Below, piece after piece: positions 1-56,192 of a stretch of DNA of 64,000 bases; the first letter of the stretch is position 1, and every line of letters starts with the position of its first letter. The notes under the pieces were generated by a model that saw only the letters and a program-made list of their open reading frames with translations, did no database searches and was not told the origin of the DNA. This DNA comes from an uncultured delta proteobacterium. Lineage in GTDB: Bacteria; Desulfobacterota; Binatia; Binatales; Binataceae. The position numbers were made by a program, and so were the translations under genes. The stretch covers positions 1,367,148 through 1,431,147 of the forward strand of contig CAVRVY010000001.1 of NCBI GenBank assembly GCA_963724765.1. Reading direction: 5' to 3'.

Positions 1-244
1 CGATGTCGTCCGGGCGGGGAAATTCGCCGACCAGGAGTCCCGGAAAAATTTCTGTCACCGACGGACGGCCGCGATTGTGCGCCACGTGGCTCTGATGATC
101 GGGTCGTTTGCTGAACCAGTCCATCTTTTGTGAAGTGTGCGATCGCGACAGCCCGCTCCTGCGCGCCGCTAATTTTCATTTTAGCTCATCAGCCTGAGGC
201 TCTAAACCTGGGAATCGCGGCGCTCGGTCAACCCCTTTGACTCC

Positions 245-453: not shown

Positions 454-3400
454 TCAGCCCTTGGCGCGACGGCCGCCGCGCGCCGACGCGCGGCGCGGCC
501 GATTCGCGGTGCGCGGCTCGTCGCCCGCCTCTCCAGCCGGCTGAGCGGTTTCCGCTGGGGCCACTGCGGTGCCGCCATCGTCGCTGTGCGCGCTATGCGC
601 GCGCATGGAGCGCTTGGCCGCGCTGGACAGCGGCAGTCTCTCGCCCAGCGCCAGCACCGCCGCACGCATCGCGTCGGCGAGCTTGCGATAGGCGCCGGTG
701 CCCTCGGCGTTGTCGGCGAGCGCGCGCAACTCGGCGTTGGTTATCACGCGGCCAATTCGGACTTCGACCGGGCGGCGATGCGGGATGATGCTGCCTTTGC
801 CGAGAACCTCGTAAGTGCCGCTGATACGTACCGGCAGCACGTCGCATCCGCCGCGCAGCGCCAGGTAACCCGCGCCGCTTTTGAATTCGTGGATCGCGCC
901 GTCGGGTGAGCGCGTGCCCTCGGGAAACATCAGGACGCTGCGCCCGGCATCAAGCTCGTCGATCGCGTCGTCGAGCGAGTCAAGCTGCGCGCGCTCGCGG
1001 TCGAACGGAATCAGGCGGGTGAAGTTGCTGACCACGAAGCGGCGCGCGTTGGTATTGAAGAAATAATCCTTGGCGGCGAGCACGACCAGCTCGCGGCCCG
1101 GCGCGCCCAGCGCGTAGCTGGTGAGCGCGAAGTCGAGATGGCTCGCGTGATTGGCGACCACCAGGAAGTTGCGATTCGCCGGCACGTTGCCGCGGCCCAG
1201 CACGCGCGGCTGGAGCCAACCGTCAAACGCCATCCGCTGCGCCCCGCGAAACGCCGCTTCGCCCAGGCGCTTGAGCGCCCCCGGCAAGATCGGCGTGAAC
1301 GGCTCGGCGAAGCGCGCGTATGACGGCAGCCGCGGGCGGTTCTGTCCCTGGCCCACGGCGCGTTGCAGATCGTCGACGGTGCGAAGGTCGCCTAGCTCCT
1401 CGGGGCTCAGCTCGCGCTCGGCGTGAGCCGCGATATGCTCGGCCAGTTCGGCCATCGCCAGCGAGTCGAGTCCGAGGTCTTCGATAAGCCGGGTCGCGGG
1501 CGTGATGCTCTCGATGCCGCTGGAGACCTGGGCGAGCGCCTGGGCTAGCCACGGCTCGACCTCGGAGCTGACCGCCGCACGCTCCTGGGCGTGGCTCTCG
1601 AGCATCCGCGCGAGGATCCCGACGACTTCGAGGCGCTTGACCTTGCGCGTGCGGGTCCGCGGCAGCTCGGTGTCGGTGAAACGCAGGATGCGGATGCGTT
1701 TGTGCGGGCTGAGTCCCGCGCCCACCTTTTCGAAATGCGTACGCAGGTTGTCTTCCACGGCGCGACGGCTTTCACCGCGTGCGTAAGCCGGTACCACCAG
1801 CGCCGCGGCCTGCTCGCCCAGGGCAACCTTAAGCCCGACGATCGCAATCTCCTTGATATACGACGAGTGTCCGTAAACTTCTTCGAGTTCGTCGATATAA
1901 ATATTGTTGCCGCCGGAGTCGACGATCACGTCCTTGGCGCGGCCAACGATGTAGAGCCGTCCGTCTTCGTCGAGGCGGCCGAGGTCTCCGGTGCGGAGCC
2001 ACCCTTCGTGCAACACCTCGTCGGTGGCGGCTTTGTTGTGGTAGTAACCCGCCATCACGTTCGGCCCGCGCGCCAGGATTTCGCCCACTGTGCCGTCGCC
2101 GCTGGAGGCGAGCTTGATTTCGACGCCATTGAGCGGCTTGCCGACCGACCCGGCGGCCATCGGTTCGTCCGGGCGCGCGACGCTCAGCACTGGCGCGGCC
2201 TCGGTCAGGCCGTAACCCTCGAGTAGCCGTATCCCGATGTCGTTGAAGAAGCTGGCTACGCGTTGCGGCAGCGCCGCGCCGCCGCTCACCGCGAGCCGCA
2301 GCCGCCCGCCAAGCGCGGTATGGGCCTGGCGGAAGAGCATCGCGCCGGCATTGAGACCCCATTCGCTGTCGAACCTGCGGTTGAGATCGCGCAGGCGATC
2401 GAACAACGCGTGGAGGAAGGGCCCTTGCGCCTCGACCCCGTCGACGATGCGGCGATGCACCGCCTCCCACAGCGCGGGCACGCCGACCACCGCGGTCGGC
2501 CGCACGTCGGCCAGCGTGCGCGCGAGGCTCGCGGCGTCCACGCCGAGCGGATAGACCACGGTCGCGCCGAGCGCGAGCGGCAACAGCATCCCGCACGTGA
2601 ACTCGAAGGTGTGATGGAGCGGGAGCAGTGAGAGCACCACGTCGGAGGAATCGAGCGCAAAGACCCGCGCGAGCATCGCTACTTCGGCGGCGAAATTCCC
2701 ATGCGTGAGCATCACGCCCTTGGGCGCGCCGGTGGTGCCGGAGGTAAAAACGATGGAGGCGAGGGTCTTGCGCTCGGCGGCGGGCCGCGGGTCGGGCCGC
2801 CCTTTGAGCACGAAGGGACGGCTCAGCTCGGCGAACTCGAACTCGACGATCTCGCTGTTCAGCTCAGCCAGTGCGCCGCCCAGCCGCTTGGCGACGGCCG
2901 CCGAGCATAGCGCCGCAGCGGGCGTAGCGATGCGGCAGATGGGCGCCAGCTCTTCGGGCGAAATCAGATGGTCCAGCGGTACGGCGACCGCACCGGCGGC
3001 GAGAATCGAAAAATATGCGAGCACCCACTCGGGCGAGTTCTCGCCGATGAGCAGCACGCGGTCGCCCGTCTTGACCCCGCGCATCCCGAGCAACAGGCCG
3101 GCGCGATGCGCACCGTCGCGCAGCTCGCGGAAGGTGGACGTGATGCGCTCGCCCGAGGGTTGCCGCGCAACCAGCGCGGGCCGCGAGCCGTAGCGCTCAG
3201 CCGCGCGGTCCAGCATTTCGGCCAGGGTGCGATGGCGCGCCGGAGCGCTGGGGCGGCCGCGGGTATGCAGATCGAGCGAGCCGAAGATGTGCCGGCGCAG
3301 TCCCGGCAGATGCACGTTGATCCAGTAGTCCGCCCAATCGATTCGTTCGGGCGCGTAGGGATGATGCTCGGCGTCGGCACTCGCGAGCGATTTGTAGAGC

Positions 3401-4872
3401 GCGCGGATGTTGGTGCCGTGGAAGGTGTAGACGAGTTCCTGGATGTATGGGCGATAGACCTCAACCAGCTCGCGCGCCATTGCGGTGTTGGCGCCAAACT
3501 TGTCGACGCTCTGCGCGAACTTTTTCGCGCGCTCGGAGTCCTCGCCAAGCAGCGTGCGCGCGGCGCCGGCGCCCTGCTTGAGCAACTCGGGCAGCGTCTG
3601 GCTCGCGAGCTCGTAAGTGCTCTGCGAGACGACCACCGCCTCCAGGTGCGGTGCAAAGCGGCCCATGGGACCGCCCACGCGGCGATGCTCGCGACGGTTG
3701 CTGAGCCCGGTCAGCTCGACCAGCCGGCGCATCGGCAACGGATTCACGTCGGACGTGCAGAGCTGGTAGATGGGTTTGTGGCGTCCGGCGAGCAGTGCCG
3801 CGAGAATCGGGATCATCGCGTGCGCTGCAAGGTCGACCGGAATGACGTCGAGCACCAGCTCGCCCTTGGCCGGGTACAGGCGATAACCGCGGCCGGAAAG
3901 ATAAGTCAACGGAGCGCTGGTGTTGACGCCCTGGTTCCATCCGGGGAACGGGTCGCGGAGCGCGCTTTCGATGATCGAGGGGCGCGCCACCGTGGCGGCA
4001 ATCGTGTCCTGCGCCGCGAACACCAGTTGCTCGCCGAGGCTCTTGCTGTAGCTGTAGGTGTTGGGCCATCCCCAGCGCCGCGCGCGCTCCAGGCCAATCT
4101 CCTTGAGCCGTTCTTCGACCCAGCGCTTGCGCCAGCGCTCGGCCGCCGCTTCGTGGACGTCGCCGCCGTCGGCGTCCGCATTGACCACGTGCAGCTCGTC
4201 GGCCTGGCGCGCCTGGTCGTGGGATTCCGCTTCCACGCGGGCGACCGCGGCGAGCGCGTCGCGGATTTCGCGCCGCAGCGTGAAATTGCGCCGGCCGTTG
4301 GGACACCAGTCGGTCGGTATGTCGTCCTCGAAACGATGGCCGTCCGCGTTGCCCGCGGCGTAGCAGGTCGAAACATGGAGCAGCGCGGCGCCGCGCTTGC
4401 GGCAGAACTCGATCACGTTGGCAACGCCGGTGGTGTTGACCGACAGCGACTTCTCCAGCGAGGCCTCGAAGTTGACCAGTCCCGCGCAATGCACCACCGC
4501 GTCGATCGCGCCGCGGCCCGGCGCCTCGCCCTCGGAGACCAGGTCGTCCTCGGTGATGTCGCCGCAGAGCACGGAAAGCTTTTCCTCGACGTAGCGGTCG
4601 AAGCGGTCGCCAAGGTGTTCGCGCAAAGGACCGAACACGGGCGAGTCGAGAATTTCGCGGCGCAAGCGGCTGAGCGCGAGGCGGCGGTCGCCGCGGATGA
4701 GCAGGTAGATGCGCTCGATCTCGGGATGCCAGCGCAGGAGCAGCGAGAGGAAGACCTTGCCGAGAAAGCCGGTCGCGCCGGTCAGCAGGATGCGGCGGTG
4801 GCGCAGCGTCTGTTCGAGCGGCGCCATCGCGGTGCGCGCGGCGCTGCCGTTAGTTCCATTGCTATTCGACAT
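454..4872 (-). CDS. elbD: Multidomain fatty acyl reductase / acyl-AMP ligase / ACP / acyltransferase (ElbD-like ether-lipid enzyme)
   Basis: N-terminal TGATGFLG and YSYSK (FAR-type SDR); FTSGTTGAPKG, GYGLTE, TGDLG (adenylation domain); LGLDSL (phosphopantetheine site); NHASHLD and FPEGTRS (PlsC-type acyltransferase). Domain order matches Myxococcus ElbD. Confidence 0.85.
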   Translation of the reverse strand: MSNSNGTNGSAARTAMAPLEQTLRHRRILLTGATGFLGKVFLSLLLRWHPEIERIYLLIRGDRRLALSRLRREILDSPVFGPLREHLGDRFDRYVEEKLSVLCGDITEDDLVSEGEAPGRGAIDAVVHCAGLVNFEASLEKSLSVNTTGVANVIEFCRKRGAALLHVSTCYAAGNADGHRFEDDIPTDWCPNGRRNFTLRREIRDALAAVARVEAESHDQARQADELHVVNADADGGDVHEAAAERWRKRWVEERLKEIGLERARRWGWPNTYSYSKSLGEQLVFAAQDTIAATVARPSIIESALRDPFPGWNQGVNTSAPLTYLSGRGYRLYPAKGELVLDVIPVDLAAHAMIPILAALLAGRHKPIYQLCTSDVNPLPMRRLVELTGLSNRREHRRVGGPMGRFAPHLEAVVVSQSTYELASQTLPELLKQGAGAARTLLGEDSERAKKFAQSVDKFGANTAMARELVEVYRPYIQELVYTFHGTNIRALYKSLASADAEHHPYAPERIDWADYWINVHLPGLRRHIFGSLDLHTRGRPSAPARHRTLAEMLDRAAERYGSRPALVARQPSGERITSTFRELRDGAHRAGLLLGMRGVKTGDRVLLIGENSPEWVLAYFSILAAGAVAVPLDHLISPEELAPICRIATPAAALCSAAVAKRLGGALAELNSEIVEFEFAELSRPFVLKGRPDPRPAAERKTLASIVFTSGTTGAPKGVMLTHGNFAAEVAMLARVFALDSSDVVLSLLPLHHTFEFTCGMLLPLALGATVVYPLGVDAASLARTLADVRPTAVVGVPALWEAVHRRIVDGVEAQGPFLHALFDRLRDLNRRFDSEWGLNAGAMLFRQAHTALGGRLRLAVSGGAALPQRVASFFNDIGIRLLEGYGLTEAAPVLSVARPDEPMAAGSVGKPLNGVEIKLASSGDGTVGEILARGPNVMAGYYHNKAATDEVLHEGWLRTGDLGRLDEDGRLYIVGRAKDVIVDSGGNNIYIDELEEVYGHSSYIKEIAIVGLKVALGEQAAALVVPAYARGESRRAVEDNLRTHFEKVGAGLSPHKRIRILRFTDTELPRTRTRKVKRLEVVGILARMLESHAQERAAVSSEVEPWLAQALAQVSSGIESITPATRLIEDLGLDSLAMAELAEHIAAHAERELSPEELGDLRTVDDLQRAVGQGQNRPRLPSYARFAEPFTPILPGALKRLGEAAFRGAQRMAFDGWLQPRVLGRGNVPANRNFLVVANHASHLDFALTSYALGAPGRELVVLAAKDYFFNTNARRFVVSNFTRLIPFDRERAQLDSLDDAIDELDAGRSVLMFPEGTRSPDGAIHEFKSGAGYLALRGGCDVLPVRISGTYEVLGKGSIIPHRRPVEVRIGRVITNAELRALADNAEGTGAYRKLADAMRAAVLALGERLPLSSAAKRSMRAHSAHSDDGGTAVAPAETAQPAGEAGDEPRTANRPRRASARGGRRAKG

Positions 4873-6502
4873 CAGCGATCACCAGCGGCGGTAAGTGGAG
4901 ATAGGTGATACTGGCCGAGCGCCCCAGATCCGACGTCGCCATCGCGATCGCCTCGTCCAGCGTGTCGGCCGACTCCCATCCCATACGCGTTGCGACTTCC
5001 GGCTCCTCGCATCCTGCGGCGATTACCCGTCCTACGTGCTGGCGAGCCGGCTCGCCCCAGTACCACATGTAGAACGGATGCACGCCGTGATAGGCATGGC
5101 CGTAGCGATACATGTGAACGTAGGTCGGGTTGCGTGCGAACTCGGCTTCGAAGTTGCGCTCCAGCTCGGTGGCCTCGGTGGTCTCGCGCAGGCAGCGATG
5201 GAAGAACTCGATGTAACTCGGATGATGCTCGGGGTGAAACTGATCGCGCAACGGATGACAGATGATCACGGTACCGCCTTCGCGTACCAGCGGCTTGCCG
5301 CGGAACATGTTGAACAGGTAGCCAAGACCCGTGCACTGCACCAGCACCGGGTTCATCACCGAGTTGACGTTGTAGGGGCAGACGTAGGGAACGCCTACGA
5401 TCAGCACGTCGGACTGGCCCTTGACCGGCACCGCGTATTGCTGGAACACGCGGGCCAGCGCCTTGCGATGCACCGCGTCGGTCTCGCCCGCCCACACGCC
5501 GGTCATCGAATAGGGCGCGGCGTATTGATTGAGCACCTGGCGGCGCAGTGAATCCGACATGTTGCCGAGCGTCCAGCGAAAGCCCTTCAACCGCATCCGA
5601 TCCCAATCCGAGAAGCGGTCCTCGTTCTTCTGCAGAAAATCGAGCATCCCGCCGTACATCTGGTTGTTGATCGCGGTCTCGATGGTGAAGACATTGACGT
5701 GCTCGTTGACCAGGCGGCCCATCCGGTTGGCCGAGTGATGCAGCGCCGATCGCGTCGGGTCCATGTAGGAATTGCACTGGCGCAGCGTGGCCGGGTTGTG
5801 ATGGTGGCGCAGGCTCTGGTAGGGCGCGAGGCCGACCGCGACGGATTTGTGGCCGCCGTCCATCGGGACCAGGTTGATGTTGAGATAGAGCAGCAGGTCG
5901 GACTCGGCCGCGCGGCGTGAGAGCCATACCTCCTCGCCATGATCGGTCTTGCCCAGCATCGCCAGCTCGGCGCGATTCTCGGCGTCGAAGTTATACAGCC
6001 GTTCGGGCCAGAACTCCTTGAACGCGCGCTCGCCCACCATGCGGCGAATCTCGGCCTCGGTCATGCGCCGATGGAGCGAGGTTGCGACGATCAGATGGAC
6101 ATCGTCGACGCCGTAGTCGGCGAGCGTCTGGAGTACGATGTTGAGCGCGCGCTCGCGGATATCGGGCCGGCGCATCTGCGGCAGCGGCAGGCTGATGTCG
6201 TCGATCGCGATCGTGACGCGCATGTTGGGATTGAGCTGCGCGAACAGCGGATCGGCGTTTTCAGGACGTAACAGCGCGTAGCGGATCGCGGCATCAGGAT
6301 TGGCCAGCGGCTCCAGCGGCGGCGGGGGATAGATCACTCGCGTGCCGGCGGGCAGCTTCTCGTACCAGAAGTCGTCGCCATAGGCGATGAGCCGCGGCGC
6401 CGAGCGCCGGTTGAGCGTCACCACCAGGTCTCGGCGCGCGCCGGGCTCGTGCCGGAGTTCGGCGGTCTTCAGCTCTTTGAGCTTACCTTCCGGTCGCGCC
6501 AT
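4862..6502 (-). CDS. Lactate racemase (LarA/DUF2088) domain protein, ElbC-like
   Basis: VTIAIDDISLP, IVATSLHRRM and DGGHKS motifs of the LarA N-terminal domain; start re-set to MARPEG (6502) behind GGGAGAG; overlaps both neighbours. Confidence 0.75.
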   Translation of the reverse strand: MARPEGKLKELKTAELRHEPGARRDLVVTLNRRSAPRLIAYGDDFWYEKLPAGTRVIYPPPPLEPLANPDAAIRYALLRPENADPLFAQLNPNMRVTIAIDDISLPLPQMRRPDIRERALNIVLQTLADYGVDDVHLIVATSLHRRMTEAEIRRMVGERAFKEFWPERLYNFDAENRAELAMLGKTDHGEEVWLSRRAAESDLLLYLNINLVPMDGGHKSVAVGLAPYQSLRHHHNPATLRQCNSYMDPTRSALHHSANRMGRLVNEHVNVFTIETAINNQMYGGMLDFLQKNEDRFSDWDRMRLKGFRWTLGNMSDSLRRQVLNQYAAPYSMTGVWAGETDAVHRKALARVFQQYAVPVKGQSDVLIVGVPYVCPYNVNSVMNPVLVQCTGLGYLFNMFRGKPLVREGGTVIICHPLRDQFHPEHHPSYIEFFHRCLRETTEATELERNFEAEFARNPTYVHMYRYGHAYHGVHPFYMWYWGEPARQHVGRVIAAGCEEPEVATRMGWESADTLDEAIAMATSDLGRSASITYLHLPPLVIADVE

Positions 6503-7280
6503 CCGTAGCTCTCCCCAGCCAGTCCAGCAGCCACGTCCCGGTTGAGCTGCCGTCGCGGACGGGCTCGGCGTCATGGCTGAAACGAACAATGGGCCATTTG
6601 CGATTGTGCGCGGCGGCGAGCAGGCGGCGATCGGGATTGACGGCCACCGGATGCCCCAGCGCGCAGAGAAAGGGTAAGTCGTAGTATGAGTCGGCGTATC
6701 CCCAGCATCCCGCCATGTCGACGCGGCACGCCTCAGTGAAGCTTTCGCACCACTGCGACTTCTCGGAACCCGCCATCACCGGCTCCAGCATCCGGCCCGT
6801 AGCGAGTCCGCGGCTGTAGACCAGGCGGTTGGCGGCGAAATATTCGATCTTGAGGCGGCGCGCGAGCGGCTCGACCAGGAAATCAGGCGACCCGGTAACC
6901 AGCACCGGTTCGATTCCGGCGGCGCGATTGGCCTCGAGCATTTCGATCGCGCGCGGATACAGATGGCGCATCAGCACCCGGTCGCAATACTCGTCTCCAA
7001 GTTCCCACAGACGGTCGCGCGAGACCCCCTTGTAGGCCTCGAACAGCATCATGTTGAGCAGCCGGCGGTCGTGACGCTCGGCCATGTAGAGCCGCGGAAG
7101 GCTGAGCGCGAGACGGGCGAGATAGCCGGCACGTCCGCTCCATTCGCCCAGGTTGGCCATGTAGAAGACGGTGGCGTGCAGCAGGTTGAGACTGGCCAGC
7201 GTGCCGTCGAGGTCGTAAAAGGCCAGCACCTTAGCCCGGCCGCGGGAGCTGCGTCCCGTTCTGGTCGCATAAACTGACAT
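6483..7280 (-). CDS. HAD-IB family hydrolase/phosphatase, ElbB-like
   Basis: FYDLDGTL motif I, LVTGS motif II, GYADSYYDLPFL motif IV, PVAVNPD. Confidence 0.88.
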   Translation of the reverse strand: MSVYATRTGRSSRGRAKVLAFYDLDGTLASLNLLHATVFYMANLGEWSGRAGYLARLALSLPRLYMAERHDRRLLNMMLFEAYKGVSRDRLWELGDEYCDRVLMRHLYPRAIEMLEANRAAGIEPVLVTGSPDFLVEPLARRLKIEYFAANRLVYSRGLATGRMLEPVMAGSEKSQWCESFTEACRVDMAGCWGYADSYYDLPFLCALGHPVAVNPDRRLLAAAHNRKWPIVRFSHDAEPVRDGSSTGTWLLDWLGRATDGATGR

Positions 7281-7281
7281 G

Positions 7282-7932
7282 TCATTCTACCTTGGGCCCA
7301 GAAACAGCGCGCTCAGCCGTTGGCAATTCGCCACGCCGGCGGGCTTCGTCGAGCAACTCCGGGCGCGCCACGCCACCCAGTCCGAAGGCCAGAATTTCTT
7401 CGACTAGCGAATCGATCTCACGCGGGCGCCGGCGCGCGATCTGGCCGACCACCTCCTTGATTCCGCCCAGGATGCAATAGGCGGCGATGCGCGTGTCGCA
7501 GGGACGCACGAGGTTCATCTGCACGCCCAGGTCCAGCGAACGCTGGATGGCGTCGGCGATGCGCTGGTAGAATTCCAGGATCCGCAAATCGAGGTCGCGG
7601 TCGAAACCCACCGAGTGGTTGAGCAGGATATCGGTCAATTCGCGCTCCGCCAGCACGAAATTCATCACGCGCTTGAGGTTGTCGCGCAGTTGATTGACCG
7701 GGTCGGGTTCATCCGCGCGCAGGCGCTGGATGCGTCGTGAAAGCTCGGTTAGCACTTGGGCGAGCAGTTCCTCGAAGAGATCCTTCTTGTTTTGAAAGTA
7801 GAGGTAGAAGGTACCTCGTGCGATACGAGCGCGGGCGATGATATCAGCGACATTGGTCCGATGATAGCCTTTGCGCGCGAATATCCGCTTGGCATGGCGC
7901 AACACCTGGGCGCGCCGGGCCTGTCGTTCCAT
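7282..7932 (-). CDS. TetR/AcrR family transcriptional regulator
   Basis: N-terminal HTH KGYHRTNVADIIARARIARGTFYLYFQNKKDLF. Confidence 0.92.
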   Translation of the reverse strand: MERQARRAQVLRHAKRIFARKGYHRTNVADIIARARIARGTFYLYFQNKKDLFEELLAQVLTELSRRIQRLRADEPDPVNQLRDNLKRVMNFVLAERELTDILLNHSVGFDRDLDLRILEFYQRIADAIQRSLDLGVQMNLVRPCDTRIAAYCILGGIKEVVGQIARRRPREIDSLVEEILAFGLGGVARPELLDEARRRGELPTAERAVSGPKVE

Positions 7933-7957
7933 TACAAGAAAACCTCAGGAGAATAAG

Positions 7958-7986
7958 ACCCTATCGGCCCGTTCCGGTAGTGTCAA
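7958..7986 (-). promoter_or_regulatory. sigma70-type promoter of the tetR-elb operon
   Basis: Minus strand TTGACA-17 nt-TAGGGT, about 25 nt upstream of the tetR ATG. Confidence 0.6.
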
Positions 7987-8034: not shown

Positions 8035-8511
8035 TCACGGAGAAGGTGGCGACGGCGGGCACGGACTGCAAGCCGACGCCGGCTGTCCGACGCCTATCAG
8101 CACCGGCGGGCTTATCACCGTCCCGGAGGCGGCCGTAATACACGTGCACCCCGTCACCGTGTGCGAGGTGAAGAAGCCTTGACCCTCACTGGTGAGGAGC
8201 GAATTGTTGACGAACCAGTTTGCCGACGGCGAGATATTCTGGAAAGTGCTGATCCCGTTGGAGCTGAACTCACCCTGGGCATAGAACTCGTAGTCGTCGG
8301 TGCTGAGCGGAATCTCAGCCGAGGTGGCTTGTGTACACGCGGCCCCGGTTGATGGAGCCTGCGCGCAGACCCGCATCACTATCAGCGTTATCGGCGTGAC
8401 GGTAGGAGACGGGGCCGAGCTGCTCGAGCCGCCGCCGCAACTGAGCAGCAGCGTCGTCATCACGAAAGCCAGTACAGGCCCGACAATCAAGCATCTTTTT
8501 TGCCACATCAA
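8035..8511 (-). CDS. Lipoprotein, Cys-rich, possible Ig-like domain
   Basis: Lipobox LLSC followed by a GGGSSSS linker; beta-rich body with paired Cys; Pro-rich C-terminus. Confidence 0.65.
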   Translation of the reverse strand: MMWQKRCLIVGPVLAFVMTTLLLSCGGGSSSSAPSPTVTPITLIVMRVCAQAPSTGAACTQATSAEIPLSTDDYEFYAQGEFSSNGISTFQNISPSANWFVNNSLLTSEGQGFFTSHTVTGCTCITAASGTVISPPVLIGVGQPASACSPCPPSPPSP

Positions 8512-43650: not shown

Positions 43651-44133
43651 ATGCGCAGGATGATAACGCGTCGTGAGATGATGAAGGCGATGGGCGATTC
43701 GGCCGCGGTGGCCTCGCAACTGCTCGCCATGATGGCCCTGGTACAGACCGCCGAGGGGGCTGAAATGGGCGAGCGCAAGGCCCCGGCTCCCGGCGCGTCG
43801 GATAAGGGTGTGACCGTGCGTCCGATCCTGCAACACGATTTGCCCGACGTGCCGGGCAAGCAGGTCAGCATGGTGATTGTTGATTTCGAGCCAGGCGCCT
43901 TCTCCGCGCCGCATCGCCATCCGGGCTCGACCACCGTCTACGTGCTGGAGGGTTCTGTGGTGAGCGAGGTCGATCCGGATAAGCCGGTCACCTACCACGC
44001 CGGACAGTCATGGTATGAACTCCCGCTGCACACGCATCGCATCGCGCGCAACGCGAGCAAGAGCCGCCCGGCAAAGATTCTCGCGGTGCTCATCTCGGAT
44101 AAGGGCCAGCAACTGGTTCTGCCGCCGGGTTAG
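43651..44133 (+). CDS. Cupin domain protein with twin-arginine-like leader
   Basis: TRRE leader; PHRHPG...YVLEG...WYE...H cupin motifs; GGAGGAG RBS. Confidence 0.85.
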   Translation: MRRMITRREMMKAMGDSAAVASQLLAMMALVQTAEGAEMGERKAPAPGASDKGVTVRPILQHDLPDVPGKQVSMVIVDFEPGAFSAPHRHPGSTTVYVLEGSVVSEVDPDKPVTYHAGQSWYELPLHTHRIARNASKSRPAKILAVLISDKGQQLVLPPG

Positions 44134-44205
44134 TAGTGGAAGGACGCGGCGTGAAGGTCAGGTCCTTGTCCGGTCGGTAGTAGGCCTATTTTCGGAGTCG
44201 CTGCT

Positions 44206-45066
44206 TTATCGCCAGACCGAGTCCAGCATGAGCAACCGCCGCCGCTGTTGACGCCGAATAAACCTTATAAATTCGGGCGAAACGGCACGCGGATGACGCC
44301 GCAAATAGCCGTTCAGATACCCGGCGAGCAGCATCAGACTCCCAAGGATGGGTGGACGATTTGCCGCCCTGACGGCCGCGCGAGCGAGCATGAAAACAGG
44401 CGAATATCCGAGCGCATACGCAGCGCGGCCGGTGTCAAATCTGCCACGCAGCGCTCCGCCAGCCGTCCCCTGAGGACGATGATGGTAAGCGGTGATATGG
44501 CGGAAACTGCGACTGTTAAAGCCCAACATCATGGCTTGGGCCTCGTCGATCGTATCCCAACCGATTCCAGCCTGTAGCCCACCGATTGCGGCGAAACATC
44601 TGCTGGAGTACATCTTCACCGCGCCTCGCGTGTGAAACCGCGGCGTTCGGATTTCGTGCCATTGCGAGCCAGATGGTTCGTAGAGGACGGCACCCGCGAT
44701 ACCAAGCTTGGGGTCTTTGTCGAATTCGGCGATCAGCACTTCAACCATCTCCGGGCCGAACGTAAGATCCGCATCCAGGCGTAAAATGAAGTCGTACACC
44801 TCCCACTGCTCACGGGGCAGGAATTTCATGACGACCGATTCACCGCCCGGCGCGCGAGCTCGGCGACGATCCAAATGATGAACCTCGAGCCTGGACCATC
44901 TGGCGGCTGCTTCATCGGCGATGGCCGGGGTTCGATCCGCGGATCCATCGTCGATGAGGATCCATCGCTCAGCGGGAACGGTTTGCGCCTCCATCGAGGC
45001 GATTAAACCGGGAAGCAGGCGCTCTTCATCGCGCGCGGGCGTTATTGCGATATAGCGTTTTCTCAT
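44206..45066 (-). CDS. Glycosyltransferase family 2
   Basis: ITPARDEE, IDDGSADRT, RLDADL, GWDTID. Confidence 0.9.
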   Translation of the reverse strand: MRKRYIAITPARDEERLLPGLIASMEAQTVPAERWILIDDGSADRTPAIADEAAARWSRLEVHHLDRRRARAPGGESVVMKFLPREQWEVYDFILRLDADLTFGPEMVEVLIAEFDKDPKLGIAGAVLYEPSGSQWHEIRTPRFHTRGAVKMYSSRCFAAIGGLQAGIGWDTIDEAQAMMLGFNSRSFRHITAYHHRPQGTAGGALRGRFDTGRAAYALGYSPVFMLARAAVRAANRPPILGSLMLLAGYLNGYLRRHPRAVSPEFIRFIRRQQRRRLLMLDSVWR

Positions 45067-45072
45067 TGGTTT

Positions 45073-46419
45073 TCAGTTCGAGTGCGCGCCTGACATTTTA
45101 GCCGGAGTTTTGCGCACGTGCGATCGCGTTCGATCCGTATAACGCCTCATTCCGCTCAGGCGATCTTTCAAGTAGGCCCAGTTTTGGCGTCGAAGCAGGT
45201 AGCGCGGTCGCAAATACACCTCAGCGTTGTTCAATGCGAACAGTGCCTTGTGAGCCTTCCAGTTGCGCACGTCCCTCAGGAGGGCGACTCGGCCAGATAT
45301 CATCAGCGTTCCCATGCCCCAAGTCTGGGTAAAGCAATAGTGCAGAGGCTGCGAGTAGATGACGGCGTCAGCTTCCGCGCTTGTTCCAGTTTCAGTGAAT
45401 GACCCGTTCGCAACCGACATTTCTATTGTCGTATCCAGATCGGGGATGCGGACGCGAAACGGACGCAGCATGCGGAGCAAAAAATGCGGATATCTCTCGT
45501 GCAGCTTCTGGACCAGAGTTTGAAACGAGGCCGCGAGCTGGGGGAGAGGCACAAGCGGGGGTACATCGTAGTTCACGGTCTGGAGCTTGGAATACGACTC
45601 GTGGTACCGGGTTAGCGCCGTGGAAGAGTCGTATGCCTCGTTGACTTCGTACTCGTCGCCGGGAAAGAGAACTACGATCGGTTGTCCGCGGCTTTCGCAA
45701 AATTCAACAACATCCCATGGTTTGTTGGAAAAAGCATTCATATGCTTGTTGTCGACCGACGAGAAATACATGAAGCTCGCAAACGGTATTGTGACCTTCG
45801 TCTCCAAGTTCTGATGGTCGGCGGAGAGACTCTCGAGAACGTTCCTGGCCGCTGCCGGAGCATACTGCTCGTAATTCACGACCGGCTCTTTGACGGCGAT
45901 GGAAAATTGATTCAACACGGCATCGATCGGGCCGATGTCTTTTAAGATTCTTCCGCAGTCAGCCGAGTTCAGCCGAGCGTCGTTGACATTCAAAACGGTT
46001 TTACCACCGCTCGTGACGCCGAGGCACGAATCCAAGGTCCCAACGCGGTAGCCGTACACGCGGGTTTGGGGAGTTAGATTTATAATGAGGCGATGCGGCA
46101 ACAACCGGAACTTTCGATACCCGATATTGCGTAAAGGCCCGAATATTCTTTCTGCATTTTGGTCCTGGAACATAACCGTGACGCGTTCTTTGAAATCGAC
46201 CGCGAGCGACGCCAGCGTGGGAAAGTTCAGGTGGTCAGGGTGTTCGTGCGAAATCCACAGATATTCGACTTTTTCAAGCAGCGCATTGTCTAACTCGGCT
46301 GGAGGCCAAAGCGTCCAAGAGTCGTTAAACGCTTTGCTGCTCAGCCATGGATCCGTCCAGATTGTAGTGTCGACACAAGTGAGGAAAACCGAAGCGTGCG
46401 ACACTAATCGTATCTTCAT
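45073..46419 (-). CDS. Metallo-beta-lactamase-fold protein (UlaG/CMAH-like, no Rieske domain)
   Basis: VSHAS, TDPWL, AFNDSW, ISHEHPDH, LNVNDA, IPFASF. Confidence 0.75.
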   Translation of the reverse strand: MKIRLVSHASVFLTCVDTTIWTDPWLSSKAFNDSWTLWPPAELDNALLEKVEYLWISHEHPDHLNFPTLASLAVDFKERVTVMFQDQNAERIFGPLRNIGYRKFRLLPHRLIINLTPQTRVYGYRVGTLDSCLGVTSGGKTVLNVNDARLNSADCGRILKDIGPIDAVLNQFSIAVKEPVVNYEQYAPAAARNVLESLSADHQNLETKVTIPFASFMYFSSVDNKHMNAFSNKPWDVVEFCESRGQPIVVLFPGDEYEVNEAYDSSTALTRYHESYSKLQTVNYDVPPLVPLPQLAASFQTLVQKLHERYPHFLLRMLRPFRVRIPDLDTTIEMSVANGSFTETGTSAEADAVIYSQPLHYCFTQTWGMGTLMISGRVALLRDVRNWKAHKALFALNNAEVYLRPRYLLRRQNWAYLKDRLSGMRRYTDRTRSHVRKTPAKMSGAHSN

Positions 46420-46853
46420 CTTGCTTATCTCCGCACGATTATTGAAGATTCTAAAGATTCATTGTGACATTGTATAGAAACGCAGCTTTTGATTGCCTTT
46501 TGTGGCAGCAATATTGGTGCCCGACCGGAGGCCAGCATAAGAAGAGCGCCCCCGTCTTTAGTAATGGCGAGACCGCAGGGAAAACGCTCCGATGGCTCTT
46601 GTAAATTTTGCCGATTACGCGTGCAGAGGGGATGGAATTCTGAAATCTGTGCGGTAAAATCTCCCGGCGAATGGGACTCCCGTCTTCGAAATGAAGTTCA
46701 ACAACTTTCTATACGCAACTCTGCGTAATCGCTTAAGGGCCAATTCCTGCCTGAACCCTTGCAGGCTATCCTGTGCGACACTGAAGCCGGATCCGAAATG
46801 GATCTCTGGGGATAAATGCCTTCCCGGCATTCCCCGATTGGAGAGGCGAAATC

Positions 46854-47543
46854 ATGCCTGATTGGCAACTAGCGGTGAAGCAATCAATACTGCGCCTGGG
46901 TGCACTGACGCCAGGAGCCGCAGCACGCGGTCTTAGGAGGGCATCTGAACTGATCGATTGCGGACGCTGGTTGCGCAAGAATTCGCTATATCCTGCAGCG
47001 ATGTCATTCCACGATCGGTTGAAAGTCTTCGATCGGATAGCGCGTGAAGTGAATGACAAGATGGTTTTGTACTTGGAGTTTGGCGTTTGGGAAGGATTTT
47101 CGATGAGGTATTGGTCGAAGCTTCTCAAGAATCCCAAATCAATACTCCACGGCTTCGATTCGTTCGAGGGACTGCCGGAGGAGTGGAATGAAAACCATCT
47201 TAAAGGGCGTTTTGCTCTCAATGGGAAGATTCCAGAGGTTTCTGACGATCGCATCAAATTTTTCAAAGGCTGGTTCCAGGATACGCTACCTCAATACGTG
47301 ATCCCGCCGCATGAGGTCCTGGTCATAAATATTGATTGCGACCTCTATTCCTCGACTAAGTACGTATTAGACCATTTCAGAGATTCTATTCAGCCTGGTA
47401 CTTGGCTTTACTTCGATGAATTCGGCAGTTGGGATCATGAATGTCGGGCTTTCCGCGAACTGGTAGAAGAGACAAAAATGAAGTTCGAAGCGGTGGCTGA
47501 AGCCCGGGCTATGTGGTCAGTGGCGTTTCGCCGGACTGAATAG
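46854..47543 (+). CDS. TylF/MycF/NovP-type O-methyltransferase
   Basis: LEFGVWEG, GFDSFEGLPE, KGWFQDTLP, IDCDLYSST, FDE. Confidence 0.88.
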   Translation: MPDWQLAVKQSILRLGALTPGAAARGLRRASELIDCGRWLRKNSLYPAAMSFHDRLKVFDRIAREVNDKMVLYLEFGVWEGFSMRYWSKLLKNPKSILHGFDSFEGLPEEWNENHLKGRFALNGKIPEVSDDRIKFFKGWFQDTLPQYVIPPHEVLVINIDCDLYSSTKYVLDHFRDSIQPGTWLYFDEFGSWDHECRAFRELVEETKMKFEAVAEARAMWSVAFRRTE

Positions 47544-47586
47544 ACGCACGGGGCTTTTCACTACTGCTTTGGTGTGGACGACATCT

Positions 47587-48003
47587 TCAAGGAGTGGGCG
47601 TGGCCGCGGGAAAGCCCATCTTCTCCGCCGACTCCGGATAGAGCCACAAGGTCTGGCCCGACAGAGCACCGTCGAGGACGCGCACCTTGGTCGCGCCCTT
47701 TTCGCCCGGACCCGCCTCTGCGACCAGGGTGCCCGCAGGCACCATCGTCAGTTTATGGTGGTAAAAGAGCTGGCTCACTTCCATCGTGCCGAATGCGTCG
47801 AGCGTGCGCAGCGCGCCAACTCCTTCCGTATAGTCTTGCTGGCTGTCCGCGGCCACCGTTTCCTTCGCGACGCGCCACTGCTTGCCGGTGCTTGGCGCCG
47901 CGTCCGCTGGCAGGCTTTTCCTGGTAGCTGAGCCACTGAGCTTGCACGACATCATCAGCAGAGCGACGCAAACAGAAAAGATGGCGGCGGCTATTCTGTT
48001 CAC
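47587..48003 (-). CDS. Hypothetical lipoprotein
   Basis: Signal peptide with MMSC lipobox; GAGGAG RBS; directly downstream of hisG. Confidence 0.6.
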   Translation of the reverse strand: MNRIAAAIFSVCVALLMMSCKLSGSATRKSLPADAAPSTGKQWRVAKETVAADSQQDYTEGVGALRTLDAFGTMEVSQLFYHHKLTMVPAGTLVAEAGPGEKGATKVRVLDGALSGQTLWLYPESAEKMGFPAATPTP

Positions 48004-48025
48004 AGGATCTTTTCGTAGCTCCTCT

Positions 48026-48742
48026 TCAGATGATCTTGTTGAGCGGAAACTCGATGATCCCGACCGCGCCGACTTCGAGCAGCTTGGGGAACAATTCGCG
48101 CACGGTGTGCTCGGCGATTACGGTCTCGACCGCCAGCCATTCCTTGCCCTTGAGATTGGGCGAGGGGTAGAGCGGCGAGACGGTGGGCGCGGTTATCGAG
48201 GGCAACAGCGCGATCACTTTCTCCAGGTTCTCGCGCGCGACGTTCATTTTGATTCCGACCCGGTTCTCGGCGTCGAGCGCGCCGCGCAGAAGCATCCCGA
48301 TTTGCCGAATCTTGGCCTGCTTCCATCCGACCGCCCACGCCTCGGAGTTGGCGACCAGCACCGGCGTGGAGGTCAGGAGCTGCTCGACGATCCGCAGGCC
48401 ATTGGCGCGCAGCGAGGAGCCGGTCTCGGTGACCTCGACCACCGCGTCAACCAGCCCCTCGGCGGCCTTGGCCTCGGTGGCGCCCCACGAAAATTCAACT
48501 TCAACTTTAACTTTGCGCTCGATGAAGACTCGCCGTGTGAACTCGACCATCTCGGTCGCTACCCGCTTGCCTTCGAGATCCTCCAGTCGCCGCACTGGCG
48601 AGGCATCCGGCACCGCAAGCACCCATCGCGTCGGCACCAGCGAGACCTTGGAATAGGTGAATCTTTCAACTTCCATCAACTCGACCGCGTTTTCGACGAT
48701 CCAGTCGCTGCCGGTGATACCCGCGTCGAGCGAGCCGTCAGC
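48026..48742 (-). pseudogene. hisG: ATP phosphoribosyltransferase, N-terminus missing (truncated at the junction)
   Basis: DGSLDAGITGSDW, FSWGATE, ETGSSLRANGL, C-terminal regulatory domain (PTVSPL); no upstream PKGSL-type N-terminal region. Confidence 0.88.
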
Positions 48743-48743
48743 G

Positions 48744-49481
48744 TCAGTGAGGCGCTCGCCGCTGCATTAGAGCGTCGGGCACACCGATGACCTTTGCCGG
48801 ATCAAGCCCCGCAAGCTCCACAGCCATGCGTGCCAACTCGAAGCGTGTACACTGGCCTTGATTGGCCAGGTGATAAAGGCCGCACGGGCCGGATTCCGTG
48901 ACCTCCATAATCTTCCTGCCGGCATCCACGGTGTGGGTGGCGCAACCCAACTGATCGCTTGCGACCTTATACTCCTCCCCCGCCGCGATCTTACGCAGAC
49001 CCTTATCGACAAAGTTGATCTTTCCCGGGCCGAACAATACCGAGACCCGAAAGGTCCAGTGACGGTCGAGAGTTTCGACCGCCTGCTCGGCTTGCAGCTT
49101 GGTTTGGCCGTACACCGTGATCGGGCCTGTGGGGTCGGTCTCTACATAGGGGGTCGTCTTGCGGCCATCGAACACCGCATCCGTCGAGATGTGGGCAAGG
49201 CCCGCGCCCAAAGAACGCGCCGCCTCGACCACGTTGCGCGTGCCTTGGTAATTCACTCGAACGGCCTTGGCGGGATCCGCCTCGCAGAGATCGATGTCGG
49301 GAATGCCGGCGGGATGCACGATCAAGTCCGGGCGAATTCGCTCCAAGGCCGCGCGGATGTTCTCCACATCGGTGATGTCTGCCTCTGCGCGCGTCAAAGG
49401 AAAGACCTCGTGACGCGAGGAGAATGCTTCGACCAACCCATGTCCAAACAATCCTGCCGCACCCGTGATGGCGACTCTCAT
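48744..49481 (-). pseudogene. rmlD: dTDP-4-dehydrorhamnose reductase family SDR, C-terminus missing
   Basis: TGAAGLFG, HISTDAVFDG, YGQTK, DQLGCAT, GLYHLAN; ends abruptly at RRAPH* (245 aa). Confidence 0.82.
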
Positions 49482-49622
49482 AGCTTGATGATCCTTTGTC
49501 TCCGTTCTGATCAGTTAGCGCAGGTTGACCGCGGCCGTACTCGCGTCGCCCTTTACTATACCGTGGGCCGGGATGTTGTGCGCGTCAGATTACATCCATG
49601 CGGCGGAACGGCAGTCTTCCAA

Positions 49623-50570
49623 TCACTTCAGCAGAACCACGGTGCCAGGAGTGTTATAGAGGCGAATCAAGGTATTCAGATCGCGCTGGCTGGGCTTGCT
49701 GACGAGGGACTTCCAATCAAAGGGATATGGCAGTCCCGGGACATAGATACGACGGTTCTTTTCCTGGACCTGCCAATACATGATGTCTCCCTTCGAATCG
49801 CTGTGTCCTTGGATTCCGAGGGCGTGCCCCATTTCGTGCAGCACGATGGCGCGCATCTCATCTTTAGACCATCGGCGTGAGAGGTCTACGGAGATAAAGG
49901 CCACGCGTCGTCCGGTCAGCTCGTCTCCAACGCGGCGAAACTGCACCCAGTCCTTTTCCTCGCCTGCGGCGTTCTCGACGTCCGTGCCCGCCTCCCAATT
50001 GAAGCGAATATCCGCTTCCTCTTCTTCGGCGGCCAACTCCAGAGGGAATAGTCCTTGCCATATCCCAATTGCCTCCCGCGCTCCTTGCGCCCAATTGGCG
50101 ACGGGCACACCTCCAATCAAGACCTTGATGGGAAATGAGCTCCACTTACGGGATTCCGAACTTTCCGAGATCTCCCCATAGTAGTCCGAAGCGGATGCGA
50201 CGTAACGCGAGGGCCGTAGGCCGTCCGGGTACGCTGGCAACATTGTGAGTATCTGGATTCTGGCATTGGCTTGAGCCACCTGAAACTTGAACTCCGAAGC
50301 ATTGGCGGCGATGTCAGCGAACTGTCGCCAATCCGCGATGGCCTTCTGGCGGTCAACCATCTCATCTGCCAGAGCGCGATCGTAGTAAGCCTCAAAGTAT
50401 TGCGGGTCTTGCGAAATGGCCTGACTGTATGCCGCCGAGGCGTCGGCAAACCGGTTCTGCTCAAACAACGCACTGCCTTGCTGAAAGCTTGCCTTCGCCG
50501 CTTCCCGGTCCGCGAATGCCGCCGGGCTGACAATCACCAGGAGTAGCAATCCCAGCATAACGTGGCGCAT
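49623..50570 (-). CDS. Secreted TPR-domain matrixin (M10-like) zinc metalloprotease
   Basis: Signal peptide, TPR-like repeats, HEMGHALGIQGHS zinc motif and DIMY Met-turn. Confidence 0.87.
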   Translation of the reverse strand: MRHVMLGLLLLVIVSPAAFADREAAKASFQQGSALFEQNRFADASAAYSQAISQDPQYFEAYYDRALADEMVDRQKAIADWRQFADIAANASEFKFQVAQANARIQILTMLPAYPDGLRPSRYVASASDYYGEISESSESRKWSSFPIKVLIGGVPVANWAQGAREAIGIWQGLFPLELAAEEEEADIRFNWEAGTDVENAAGEEKDWVQFRRVGDELTGRRVAFISVDLSRRWSKDEMRAIVLHEMGHALGIQGHSDSKGDIMYWQVQEKNRRIYVPGLPYPFDWKSLVSKPSQRDLNTLIRLYNTPGTVVLLK

Positions 50571-50659
50571 GGGTAGTCACCTCCCGTGACTTGGTTCGGT
50601 GACATCATACTGGCACACGAGCTCAGGTTCCAGAGGTATGAAGACGGATCAGAAAGCTG

Positions 50660-51142
50660 TCAGGCAAGCTTCTTCAACTCGGCGAGAATCTCTCCGTTAT
50701 CCGGTTGTTCCCGCAGTTCGTAGATTTTCGACCAGGCGATTTTCCCGCCCTTATCGACAATGAAGACGGCTCGATCGTTGATGAAGGGAATGGGGTGTTT
50801 GGTGGGAGGGAAAACCCCGTACGCTGTTCCCACCTCCGCGTAGGGCCAGCGGTCAGTAGCCAAGGGGAAATTCAGCCCGCCCAAGTGTTTCTGGAACGCG
50901 ATGTGGGCAAAGACGGAATCCGTGCAGATGCCCACTACTTCAGTATTCGCATCCCTAAACTTGGTCAGATCCGCCTGGAACGCCCCCAGCTCGCTTTGGC
51001 AAACCGGAGTGAAGTCGAGGGGATAGAATGCCAGGACGACGTTCTTGCCGCGCTGAGCGGAAAGCTCGAACTCCCCTTGCGTCTCTCCGGTGGCACAGGT
51101 GAGTTTGAAGTCCGGGGCAGGATCCCCTGCTTTCAATGCCAT
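50660..51142 (-). CDS. Peroxiredoxin (AhpC/TSA, AhpE-like)
   Basis: GDPAPDF, FYPLDFTPVC (PxxxTxxC), RAVFIVDK. Confidence 0.9.
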   Translation of the reverse strand: MALKAGDPAPDFKLTCATGETQGEFELSAQRGKNVVLAFYPLDFTPVCQSELGAFQADLTKFRDANTEVVGICTDSVFAHIAFQKHLGGLNFPLATDRWPYAEVGTAYGVFPPTKHPIPFINDRAVFIVDKGGKIAWSKIYELREQPDNGEILAELKKLA

Positions 51143-51467
51143 ATGAACCTCCCAGGTTCAACTTCGAATTGGCGGCCCGCCCGCGAAAAACGCGGGCGTG
51201 CGTAAGTCGTTCAAGTTCGTGATTACCTTAATGTAAGAAGTGGAATTCTACCTGAGGAACCCCGGAAAAGGAAGTCCGACGCGGGATGAGGTTGCCGGCG
51301 AGTTCGGCGAGCGGCCGATCAGGTATACATGGCGGGTGCTAACTGTCGGGAAATCGCCCGTCGGGATTCGGGGTAAGATTCCGCCTGAACCACGTTACGT
51401 GCAGGTGATCCACAACAGGGTCGTCGATGCTACTGACGACGGACAGCGGGTATCCGGCTGCCATACT

Positions 51468-52406
51468 TCAAATCCCGTCGTATAAACTCCAAGCGTGGTC
51501 CCCAGCATTGAAAATCGACAGCTCAGGATCCTTCACCGTCACTCGGCTATAAGGCGCCACCGAGTGGGTAAGCCACACGTTGCCACCGATTACGCTGTGA
51601 TGACCGATGTGCGTGTTGCCTCCTAGAATGGTGGCGTTGGGGTAGACGGTAACGTGATCCTCGATCGTCGGGTGGCGCTTGTTTCCCTGCCCCCGGCGCA
51701 GTTGGCCATTATCGTCCTTGCCGAGCGGATTAAAGGCGCCCAGCGTCACTCCGTGGTACAGGGTTACCCGATTTCCGATGATGGAGGTTTCACCAATCAC
51801 CACGCCTGTCCCGTGATCGATGAAGAATGATTCACCGATGGAAGCTCCAGGGTGAATGTCGATGCCGGTGTGACTGTGCGCGACCTCCGTCATCATGCGG
51901 GGAATGAAGGGAACATCGAACAGGTAGAGGCGATGCGCCAGACGCTGCACGGTGACAGGTTCGATGTAGGGGTAAGCGAGCAGGATCTCCTCAACACTCG
52001 ACGCGGCTGGGTCGTTGTGGTAGGCCGCGTCGATGTCCGTCGAAAGCAGGCGGGCGAGTTCCGGCAACTGCGTGAACAAGCTCTTGTGGACCTCCTCGGC
52101 ATAATGCTCAAGGTCAGAAGGATTTGGCTTACCACTGCGGCGGCACTCAAACCGCACCGCGCGACAAATCTGGTTCGAGAGCAGCGTTTGGATCTCGATC
52201 AAGTGATGACAAGCCAGCGTGCCCGGCACCTCGCGTTCACCGCAGAGGTAGTAAATGGGAAAGAGAATCTCCAGATATCGGCGGCAGAGAGTCTCCACTG
52301 CCTCACGCGTGGGCAAATTGAATTCGCTGCTCTCCTCTCCGGCCAATTGCGCATCCAGATCCGCGCGAAACTCCTGCGCGAGGCACTTCATGTCGTCCGT
52401 ACCCAT
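51468..52406 (-). CDS. cysE: Serine O-acetyltransferase (EpsC type)
   Basis: DPAA...YP, TGIDIHPGA, FFIDHGTGVVIGET, KRHPTIED; start MGTDD at 52406 behind GAGGAG. Confidence 0.93.
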   Translation of the reverse strand: MGTDDMKCLAQEFRADLDAQLAGEESSEFNLPTREAVETLCRRYLEILFPIYYLCGEREVPGTLACHHLIEIQTLLSNQICRAVRFECRRSGKPNPSDLEHYAEEVHKSLFTQLPELARLLSTDIDAAYHNDPAASSVEEILLAYPYIEPVTVQRLAHRLYLFDVPFIPRMMTEVAHSHTGIDIHPGASIGESFFIDHGTGVVIGETSIIGNRVTLYHGVTLGAFNPLGKDDNGQLRRGQGNKRHPTIEDHVTVYPNATILGGNTHIGHHSVIGGNVWLTHSVAPYSRVTVKDPELSIFNAGDHAWSLYDGI

Positions 52407-56186: not shown

Positions 56187-56192
56187 AGGTTT

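Follow-up and report, generated by a model that had tools for sequence, protein, structure and literature searches.

A probable elb-type ether-lipid operon behind its own TetR gene in the bacterial family Binataceae

Four adjacent genes in the genome of an uncultured member of the Binataceae (assembly GCA_963724765.1, herein G000; 5.4 Mb in 4 contigs, 97% complete) encode a TetR-family regulator, a HAD-IB phosphatase, a LarA-family protein and an ElbD-like protein, and we consider it likely that they constitute the Binataceae version of the elb ether-lipid cluster (elbB-elbC-elbD), placed behind a TetR repressor gene of its own. The genes run head-to-tail, all on the minus strand, inside positions 454-7986 of the stretch that was analyzed (herein referred to as the window), 64,000 nucleotides at the end of a 1.43-Mb contig (G000:C1:1367148-1431147). 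Judging by homology, motifs and synteny, the product would most likely be alkylglycerol ether lipids, and the operon is associated with predicted phosphatidylcholine-type head-group genes and occurs without elbE. Little is known of which bacteria produce ether lipids, such as the branched tetraethers that serve as climate proxies, and the pathway to these lipids is incompletely worked out; the operon would add the Binataceae, a family widespread in peat and soil, to the likely producers.

Architecture and conservation of the operon

In Myxococcus xanthus, the elb operon (elbABCDE, MXAN_1531 to MXAN_1527; Lorenzen et al. 2014, as described in PMC9131029 and PMC13012113) comprises a dispensable NAD epimerase gene (elbA), a HAD gene (elbB), a gene of unknown function (elbC), elbD, whose product joins a fatty acyl reductase (FAR), an acyl-CoA synthetase (ACS), an acyl carrier protein (ACP) and an acyltransferase, and elbE, of the NAD epimerase family (PMC9131029; PMC13012113). 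Disruption of elbD strongly lowers both alkyl and vinyl ether lipids (PMC9131029), and inactivation of elbE also lowers ether lipids (PMC9131029; PMC13012113).

The ElbD-like protein of the window carries the Pfam domains NAD_binding_4 (residues 30-353), Sterile (466-530), AMP-binding (554-944), AMP-binding_C (995-1077), PP-binding (1108-1169) and Acyltransferase (1223-1351), an order that agrees, as the initial annotation had proposed, with the FAR-ACS-ACP-acyltransferase order published for M. xanthus ElbD, in which the last domain is like an acylglycerol-phosphate acyltransferase (PMC9131029). String searches of the translations located GATGFLG (32-38) and YSYSK (273-277) in the FAR domain, TSGTTGAPKG (710-719), GYGLTE (886-891), TGDLG (961-965), GRAKD (977-981) and RKVKR (1076-1080) in the adenylation domain, GLDSL (1134-1138) in the ACP, and HASHLD (1242-1247) and FPEGTRS (1316-1322) in the acyltransferase. 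ElbB has the HAD motif DLDGT (DxDGT type) at residue 23 and barely passes the TIGR01490 HAD-IB model (98.7 bits against a cut-off of 98.3). The four genes are closely packed, with a 1-nt gap between the TetR stop (7282) and the HAD start (7280), a 20-nt overlap between the ElbC start (6502) and the HAD stop (6483) and an 11-nt overlap between the ElbD start (4872) and the ElbC stop (4862), once the ElbC gene is started at ATG 6502 rather than at TTG 6589, which opens the longest open reading frame (ORF). Pfam, NCBIfam and the motif searches hence bear out the earlier description of four coupled genes with intact motifs, and ESM Atlas look-ups gave the same family assignments as Pfam and NCBIfam.

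The lineage had initially been read as Binatota-like and not myxobacterial, and the genome is indeed that of a member of the Binataceae. The best 120 ElbD homologues are 67-95% identical to the window's protein, and the 14 named among them comprise 13 Candidatus Binataceae or Binatus and one Deltaproteobacteria bacterium. TetR, HAD, ElbC and ElbD genes are contiguous, in identical order and orientation, in 12/12 Binataceae genomes fetched (identity to the window 65-87% for TetR, 57-78% for HAD, 78-93% for ElbC and 58-86% for ElbD); the same genes in the same order on the same strand in every one of these genomes argue that the arrangement is not due to chance. By these alignments ElbC shows the highest conservation in the cluster, with 78-93% identity inside the family and 52-58% in comparisons with other phyla. 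In a wider sample of the class, analyzed with a stricter first look and a threshold of 1e-100, ElbD was matched at 60% identity or more in 44 of 49 Binataceae genomes; the match is complete or nearly complete in 42, and in G584 and G595 it is split into two parts located at the ends of contigs. This count takes in the unpublished G595 and G600 and becomes 42/47 without both. Two Binataceae genomes (G204 and G474) have no Lar_N match and are also among the five without ElbD, a pattern consistent with the cluster being lost as a whole. Among the other Binatia families of the sample, ElbD matches were found in 2 of 251 genomes (19 families), both covering only residues about 547-1411 and without the reductase domain, so that full ElbD stands at 0/251.

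When a protein library clustered at 50% identity was compared with ElbD, the Binatia proteins formed one cluster (70% identity), followed by a protein from a Myxococcota metagenome-assembled genome (MAG) at 46% and then by full-length proteins at 30-43%; the sole organism names among 30 cluster representatives are a Myxococcota MAG, Fervidibacterota and Gemmatimonadota, with no Myxococcus. A midpoint-rooted ElbD tree places the Binatia pair as sister to the Myxococcota MAG protein (P0123), and in an ElbC tree the Binataceae are monophyletic (support 0.87), with no donor resolved. The elb cluster is thus a family-level trait of the Binataceae that was probably acquired once by horizontal transfer.

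Restriction to a single Binatia family, together with the missing elbE, could also be the mark of a decaying, horizontally acquired island that has no present function, and the ElbD matches of two genomes do contain in-frame stops (one TGA and one TAG in G663:C418; one TGA in G530:C56), which may be assembly errors or decay. We regard such an island as very improbable: the frames and motifs of the window are intact, ElbD is found in nearly all sampled genomes of the family, the four-gene order is kept in every genome fetched with ElbC at high identity, and RNA-library contigs of relatives cover the cluster. These contigs, from one soil metatranscriptome, align at 90-95% likeness to ElbD, to ElbC and to the HAD/ElbC junction (6312-6674); they give a weak hint of transcription, because they come from relatives and may reflect DNA carry-over, and at this likeness stretches that they leave uncovered are uninformative. 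Contigs identical or nearly identical to the window occur in one peat and one freshwater-sediment metagenome, and sequencing runs from soil, peat and sediment also contain part of the stretch, as judged from shared words alone.

The arrangement extends beyond the Binatia. A genome scan for ElbD returned at least nine full-length loci, most of the matches listed being generic adenylation enzymes and none of them from Myxococcus. Among the matches listed, an ElbC-type gene (52-58% identical) adjoins ElbD (38-40%) in seven of the nine full-length loci, and in six of these seven a HAD gene (37-41%) stands in front. The six HAD-ElbC-ElbD loci belong to Pyrinomonadaceae (which we take to be a family of Acidobacteria subdivision 4), another member of the Acidobacteriota, Bradymonadaceae, two Polyangiaceae and a Deltaproteobacteria MAG. 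Of the other two full-length loci, one (L017) has neither HAD nor ElbC in the 1.2 kb available upstream of ElbD, and the other (L019) has a diacylglycerol-kinase-type gene upstream of ElbD, a HAD gene downstream and no ElbC. The HAD-ElbC-ElbD order is present in two further loci (L124 and L125), and an Epimerase-family gene lies directly 3' of ElbD in all four loci outside the Binatia that were tested by Pfam. Within the Myxococcota, 62 of 201 genomes sampled have an ElbC-type gene at 44-57% identity (weaker matches in two more), and in five large genomes it adjoins ElbD in three, lies 6.4 kb off in one and sits on another contig in one; a 9.2-Mb genome has HAD, ElbC, ElbD and a short-chain dehydrogenase/reductase (SDR) gene in the published elbBCDE layout. 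The HAD and DUF2088 neighbors that the initial annotation gave for ElbD are present in the Myxococcota proxies as HAD-ElbC-ElbD(-SDR), with elbC of M. xanthus itself compared by description only. Nannocystis punicea has an ElbD-like locus with a HAD gene and no Lar_N gene anywhere in its genome, so elb-type clusters without ElbC exist.

Shared modules might account for this likeness if the operon made or remodeled non-ether lipids, whether alcohols or aldehydes for wax esters or lysophospholipids re-acylated in the manner of Aas. The adenylation-ACP-acyltransferase part is Aas-like (211.8 bits on NF006386), homologues limited to residues about 547-1420 are found in other Binatia and are common in many phyla, and some organisms with reported elbD homologues are described as lacking ether lipids (PMC11868695). 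This explanation is nevertheless quite improbable in our estimation: the Aas score falls far below the equivalog cut-off of 1221, a four-domain ElbD with HAD and ElbC, in an order kept across three phyla, is the published elb arrangement, and the sole available genetics links that arrangement to ether lipids (PMC9131029).

Table 1. Features at the start of the window, with coordinates counted from its first nucleotide
Feature	Position	Strand	Basis
TetR-family regulator, 216 aa	7282..7932	-	Pfam TetR_N, E 7e-16
ElbB-like HAD-IB phosphatase, 265 aa	6483..7280	-	Pfam HAD, E 2.7e-29
ElbC-like LarA-superfamily protein, 546 aa	4862..6502	-	Lar_N, E 2.6e-34; NF052592 (LarAH14/15/16)
ElbD-like multidomain enzyme, 1472 aa	454..4872	-	Pfam domains and motifs
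Promoter-like site 5' of the TetR gene	7958..7986	-	read from the sequence; putative function
Dual-specificity-phosphatase-type gene, 5' end (177 aa overall, leaves the window)	1..124	-	DSPc, E 4.4e-15

ElbC and a candidate mechanism

ElbC scores 839.4 bits on NF052592 (LarAH14/15/16), above the curated cut-off of 740, and its best matches in the PDB are single-histidine LarA homologues (9q2u, E 6e-31; 9q3j, E 7e-29). Residue equivalences were taken from alignment to LarA of Isosphaera and Lactiplantibacillus (9eia, 6c1w) and followed through 32 ElbC orthologues (the window's, 12 from Binataceae, seven from loci of other phyla and 12 from Myxococcota). The residues that hold the cofactor in LarA (Asp72, Lys184 and His200) correspond to ElbC Asp102, Lys219 and His235, and the first catalytic histidine (His108) to His144; all four are invariant (32/32). 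The second catalytic histidine (His174) corresponds to ElbC position 210, which is Asn in 30 orthologues and Thr in two, and Arg75, which binds carboxylate/phosphate, to position 105, which is Leu in 24, Val in seven and Met in one. With the cofactor residues and the first histidine kept and the equivalents of His174 and Arg75 gone, ElbC looks like a cofactor-binding enzyme that would act on a substrate other than a 2-hydroxy acid. LarAH groups 14 and 15 are described as being without the His174 equivalent (PMC12611868), with which ElbC position 210 agrees, and LarAH14 of Frankia was inactive on the 2-hydroxy acids tested (PMC7583248). A full-text literature search returned, among the matches listed, no publication tying elbC or elbD to the LarA/DUF2088 family. 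The conserved, nickel-pincer-type ElbC is a specific and testable candidate for the still unexplained chemistry of the elb pathway.

ElbC is the sole Lar_N protein of the genome, which also encodes larB (285 bits), larC (470 bits) and larE (327 bits), all above their cut-offs and all unlinked. Across the Binatia, LarC is found in 140 of 151 genomes and Lar_N in 73 of 151, and three families have LarC with no Lar_N at all (f6, 8/8 vs 0/8; f113, 16/18 vs 0/18; f117, 8/8 vs 0/8). We therefore rejected the possibility that larBCE exist only to serve ElbC, as LarC is near-universal in the class, including families without Lar_N; the presence of LarC in these three families, which have no LarA homologue, suggests that the Binatia contain non-LarA users of the nickel-pincer cofactor.

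A mechanism can be proposed in which the adenylation domain of ElbD would activate a long-chain fatty acid and load the ACP domain, the N-terminal reductase would turn part of the acyl pool into fatty aldehyde or alcohol and the C-terminal acyltransferase would acylate a glycerol-phosphate or dihydroxyacetone phosphate (DHAP) backbone. An alkyl chain would then be exchanged in or joined at sn-1 to give 1-O-alkyl-glycerol phosphate, and ElbC, a nickel-pincer-type protein with one catalytic histidine and no carboxylate-binding Arg, could carry out hydride transfer on a non-acid hydroxyl substrate at the alkyl-glycerol stage. The HAD phosphatase ElbB would take off a phosphate, and the phosphatase and the phosphatidylcholine-synthase-like (Pcs-like) gene downstream would provide head-group chemistry afterwards. 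TetR probably represses the operon from the promoter around 7986-7958; the repression would be relieved by a lipid ligand, for example acyl-CoA.

A bolder proposal, which we hold to be unlikely, makes ElbC the ether-forming catalyst itself: it would borrow the C2-hydroxyl hydride of 1-acyl-glycerol-3-phosphate, swap the acyl group for the fatty alcohol made by ElbD and return the hydride, by way of a transient, enzyme-bound acyl-DHAP and with the hydride handed back on the same face. Such a reaction would explain why a single catalytic histidine suffices and why the carboxylate-binding Arg was lost, as well as the top conservation of ElbC and the ability of the Binataceae to manage without elbE. 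If true, ElbC would be a redox-neutral, flavin-free counterpart of alkyl-DHAP synthase (AGPS) plus alkyl-DHAP reductase.

Regulation, flanking genes and other lipid genes of the genome

The initial annotation had placed a dedicated TetR gene at the front of the operon, and a TetR gene stands in the same place in 12/12 genomes of the family. Its product is assignable by sequence to the TetR family and not to the FadR type, given that the best NCBIfam match, the Bacillus-type fatty-acid regulator FadR (NF053878), reaches 64.6 bits against a cut-off of 200. Ahead of the gene lies a promoter-like site, TTGACA (7986-7981), a 17-nt spacer and TAGGGT (7963-7958), 26 nt before ATG 7932, and a TTTGACA plus TAnnnT box aligns in most of 13 Binataceae upstream regions. 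The site at 7958-7986 is absent from the list of a generic promoter consensus scan, which found promoter-like sites no more often than in shuffled sequence (1 vs a mean of 1.0; terminator-like sites, 6 vs 5.6). Further 5' (8035-8511, minus strand) is an ORF of 158 aa whose product has a lipoprotein-like N-terminus and matches no Pfam family; it is kept solely in the closest relative (45% identity in L099).

Among the loci examined outside the Binataceae, TetR stands directly ahead of an elb-type cluster in one alone, a Myxococcales MAG (L015, about 2080-2685), where it directly precedes ElbC-ElbD-SDR with no HAD gene between; in five other loci, none of the ORFs tested upstream is a TetR gene. 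The TetR of L015 has no detectable similarity to the window's at E 1e-6, and TetR control of elb clusters seems to have arisen more than once.

The absence of elbE immediately downstream, also remarked on in the initial annotation, cannot be judged from the window, which holds just 453 nt beyond ElbD, and it is the genome that confirms it: the next genes are a DSPc-type phosphatase gene that starts 329 nt after the ElbD stop, a Pcs-like gene and a 619-aa ORF, a block kept in the same orientation in 9 of the 12 Binataceae genomes. The Pcs-like gene (L006 13825-14589, minus strand; G000:C1:1365972-1366736, just outside the window) matches NF045886 below its cut-off (E 1.5e-48, model positions 49-238 of 250). 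No ATG, GTG or TTG precedes its conserved first helix CAWGVHLYTALGA, the frame being open back to the phosphatase stop, and ordinary start codons are present at this gene in other Binataceae; it has either a non-canonical start or an N-terminally shortened protein. The 619-aa ORF (L006 11959-13818, minus strand) belongs to no family and has a weak FGase-like N-terminus (E 0.021). Because the Binataceae cluster occurs without elbE, the essential genes would be narrowed to elbB, elbC and elbD.

Four ElbE-like queries from other phyla converge on one gene elsewhere in the genome, C1:1277026-1278120 (32-38% identity), which we rejected as elbE: its neighbors are a squalene-hopene cyclase, Dxr, two squalene/phytoene synthases and an amine oxidase, and this squalene/hopanoid context makes it HpnA-like. 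The squalene/hopanoid-type cluster as a whole (L117 1678-10039; G000:C1:1270677-1279038) consists of these genes, the amine-oxidase-type gene and the HpnA-like SDR included, and a carotenoid-synthesis-family gene. Within the window itself, positions 44001-60000 have a lower G+C, 0.53-0.60 as opposed to about 0.64, and may be foreign or distinct in some other way.

The initial annotation had also named agps and ger as genes to look for, and the genome search answered differently for the two. A homologue of AGPS is present (559 aa; G000:C1:1286604-1288283; L120 607-2286; L122 3605-5284), about 80 kb from the operon, and its best PDB match is alkyl-DHAP synthase 2uuu (E 1.5e-69, vs 7e-24 for D-lactate dehydrogenase). 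The PlsA/Ger-type DUF2229 had no match in the genome, with a Thermotoga control matching, and CarF (PF10520) had none either, the control genomes being likewise without a match.

This stand-alone AGPS might be the enzyme that makes the ether bond, the elb operon supplying substrates only (fatty alcohol from the reductase; acyl-DHAP or acyl-glycerol-3-phosphate from the acyltransferase) and ElbC performing an accessory reaction, for instance isomerization or inversion of a backbone hydroxyl. The strong match to solved alkyl-DHAP synthases speaks for such a division of labor, as do the co-occurrence of elbD and agps within genomes (bioRxiv 10.64898/2026.06.23.733905) and the FAR and acyltransferase activities of ElbD, which are exactly what AGPS needs upstream. 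We judge it rather unlikely: in M. xanthus, disruption of AGPS lowers ether lipids slightly and disruption of elbD lowers them strongly (PMC9131029), and the gene here lies far from the operon, among unrelated neighbors and with no FAR-acyltransferase beside it.

Comparison with known elb clusters and related systems

Several points weigh against the reading of the operon as an elb ether-lipid cluster. The ether-lipid pathway of the Binataceae is predicted from genes; the M. xanthus operon entered the comparison through its published description, with Myxococcota and Acidobacteriota loci as sequence proxies; and by alignment the window's ElbD is only 30-46% identical to ElbD from outside the Binatia. 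For M. xanthus ElbD itself, a role beyond ACS and ACP activity is unproven, in vitro work having detected neither acyltransferase nor reductase activity (PMC9131029), and ether lipids were not seen in Pontiella isolates for which elbD homologues are reported (PMC11868695). The four ElbE-like queries revealed no elbE beside the operon or elsewhere in the 97%-complete genome, larBCE are not specific to ElbC, given LarC in families lacking Lar_N, no conserved operator palindrome stood out in the 13 aligned Binataceae upstream regions, and the ligand and operator of TetR are guesses.

The initial expectation that the operon would widen the known sources of bacterial ether lipids holds insofar as the Binataceae would be added to them; however, the gain is modest, as elbD homologues have already been reported in Acidobacteriota, Poribacteria, Latescibacterota and many more phyla (bioRxiv 10.64898/2026.06.23.733905; PMC11868695), and both ether lipids and elb homologues in Acidobacteria subdivision 4 (bioRxiv 10.64898/2026.06.23.733905; Sinninghe Damste 2018, cited there). 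A full-text literature search, with supplementary tables outside its scope, found no publication that joins Binatota with ether lipids or Binatia with elbD.

The operon resembles that of M. xanthus in the order HAD (elbB), elbC and a FAR-ACS-ACP-acyltransferase ElbD of identical domain order, and Myxococcota genomes of 8-9 Mb have HAD, a LarA-type ElbC, ElbD and SDR, with ElbC 51-55% and ElbD 38-40% identical to the window's; it differs in that neither elbE nor elbA is adjacent, TetR leads, and a dual-specificity phosphatase and a Pcs-like gene lie downstream. The Acidobacteriota loci (L013, of the Pyrinomonadaceae, and L018) likewise have HAD, ElbC (58%) and ElbD (39%) in the order of the window, whereas an Epimerase-family gene directly follows their ElbD and none of the ORFs tested upstream encodes a TetR; in L013, HAD and ElbC are separated by a prolyl oligopeptidase gene (4979-7399). 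Aas-type fusions share the adenylation and PlsC-type acyltransferase modules with ElbD, to which ElbD adds an N-terminal reductase, another domain order and conserved HAD and ElbC partners. The AGPS/FAR/GNPAT pathway (animals; M. xanthus MXAN_1676-1674) has a reductase and an acyltransferase that here appear as ElbD domains, and an AGPS homologue is present; however, the activities are fused with an adenylation domain and an ACP in the Binataceae, and AGPS is unlinked.

ElbC shares with LarAH14/15 (Desguin et al. 2020) and with the solved LarA_Sp and LarA_Bw (9q2u, 9q3k, 9q3j; PMC12611868) the Asp, Lys and His that hold the cofactor, the first catalytic histidine and the absence of the second. 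The solved single-histidine homologues are tied to sugar metabolism by their gene neighbors (PMC12611868), whereas ElbC lies in a lipid operon, and the Arg75 position is Lys in LarA_Sp and LarA_Bw and hydrophobic in ElbC, which matches the solved enzymes only at E about 1e-30. The Binataceae operon is a recognizable member of the known elb system.

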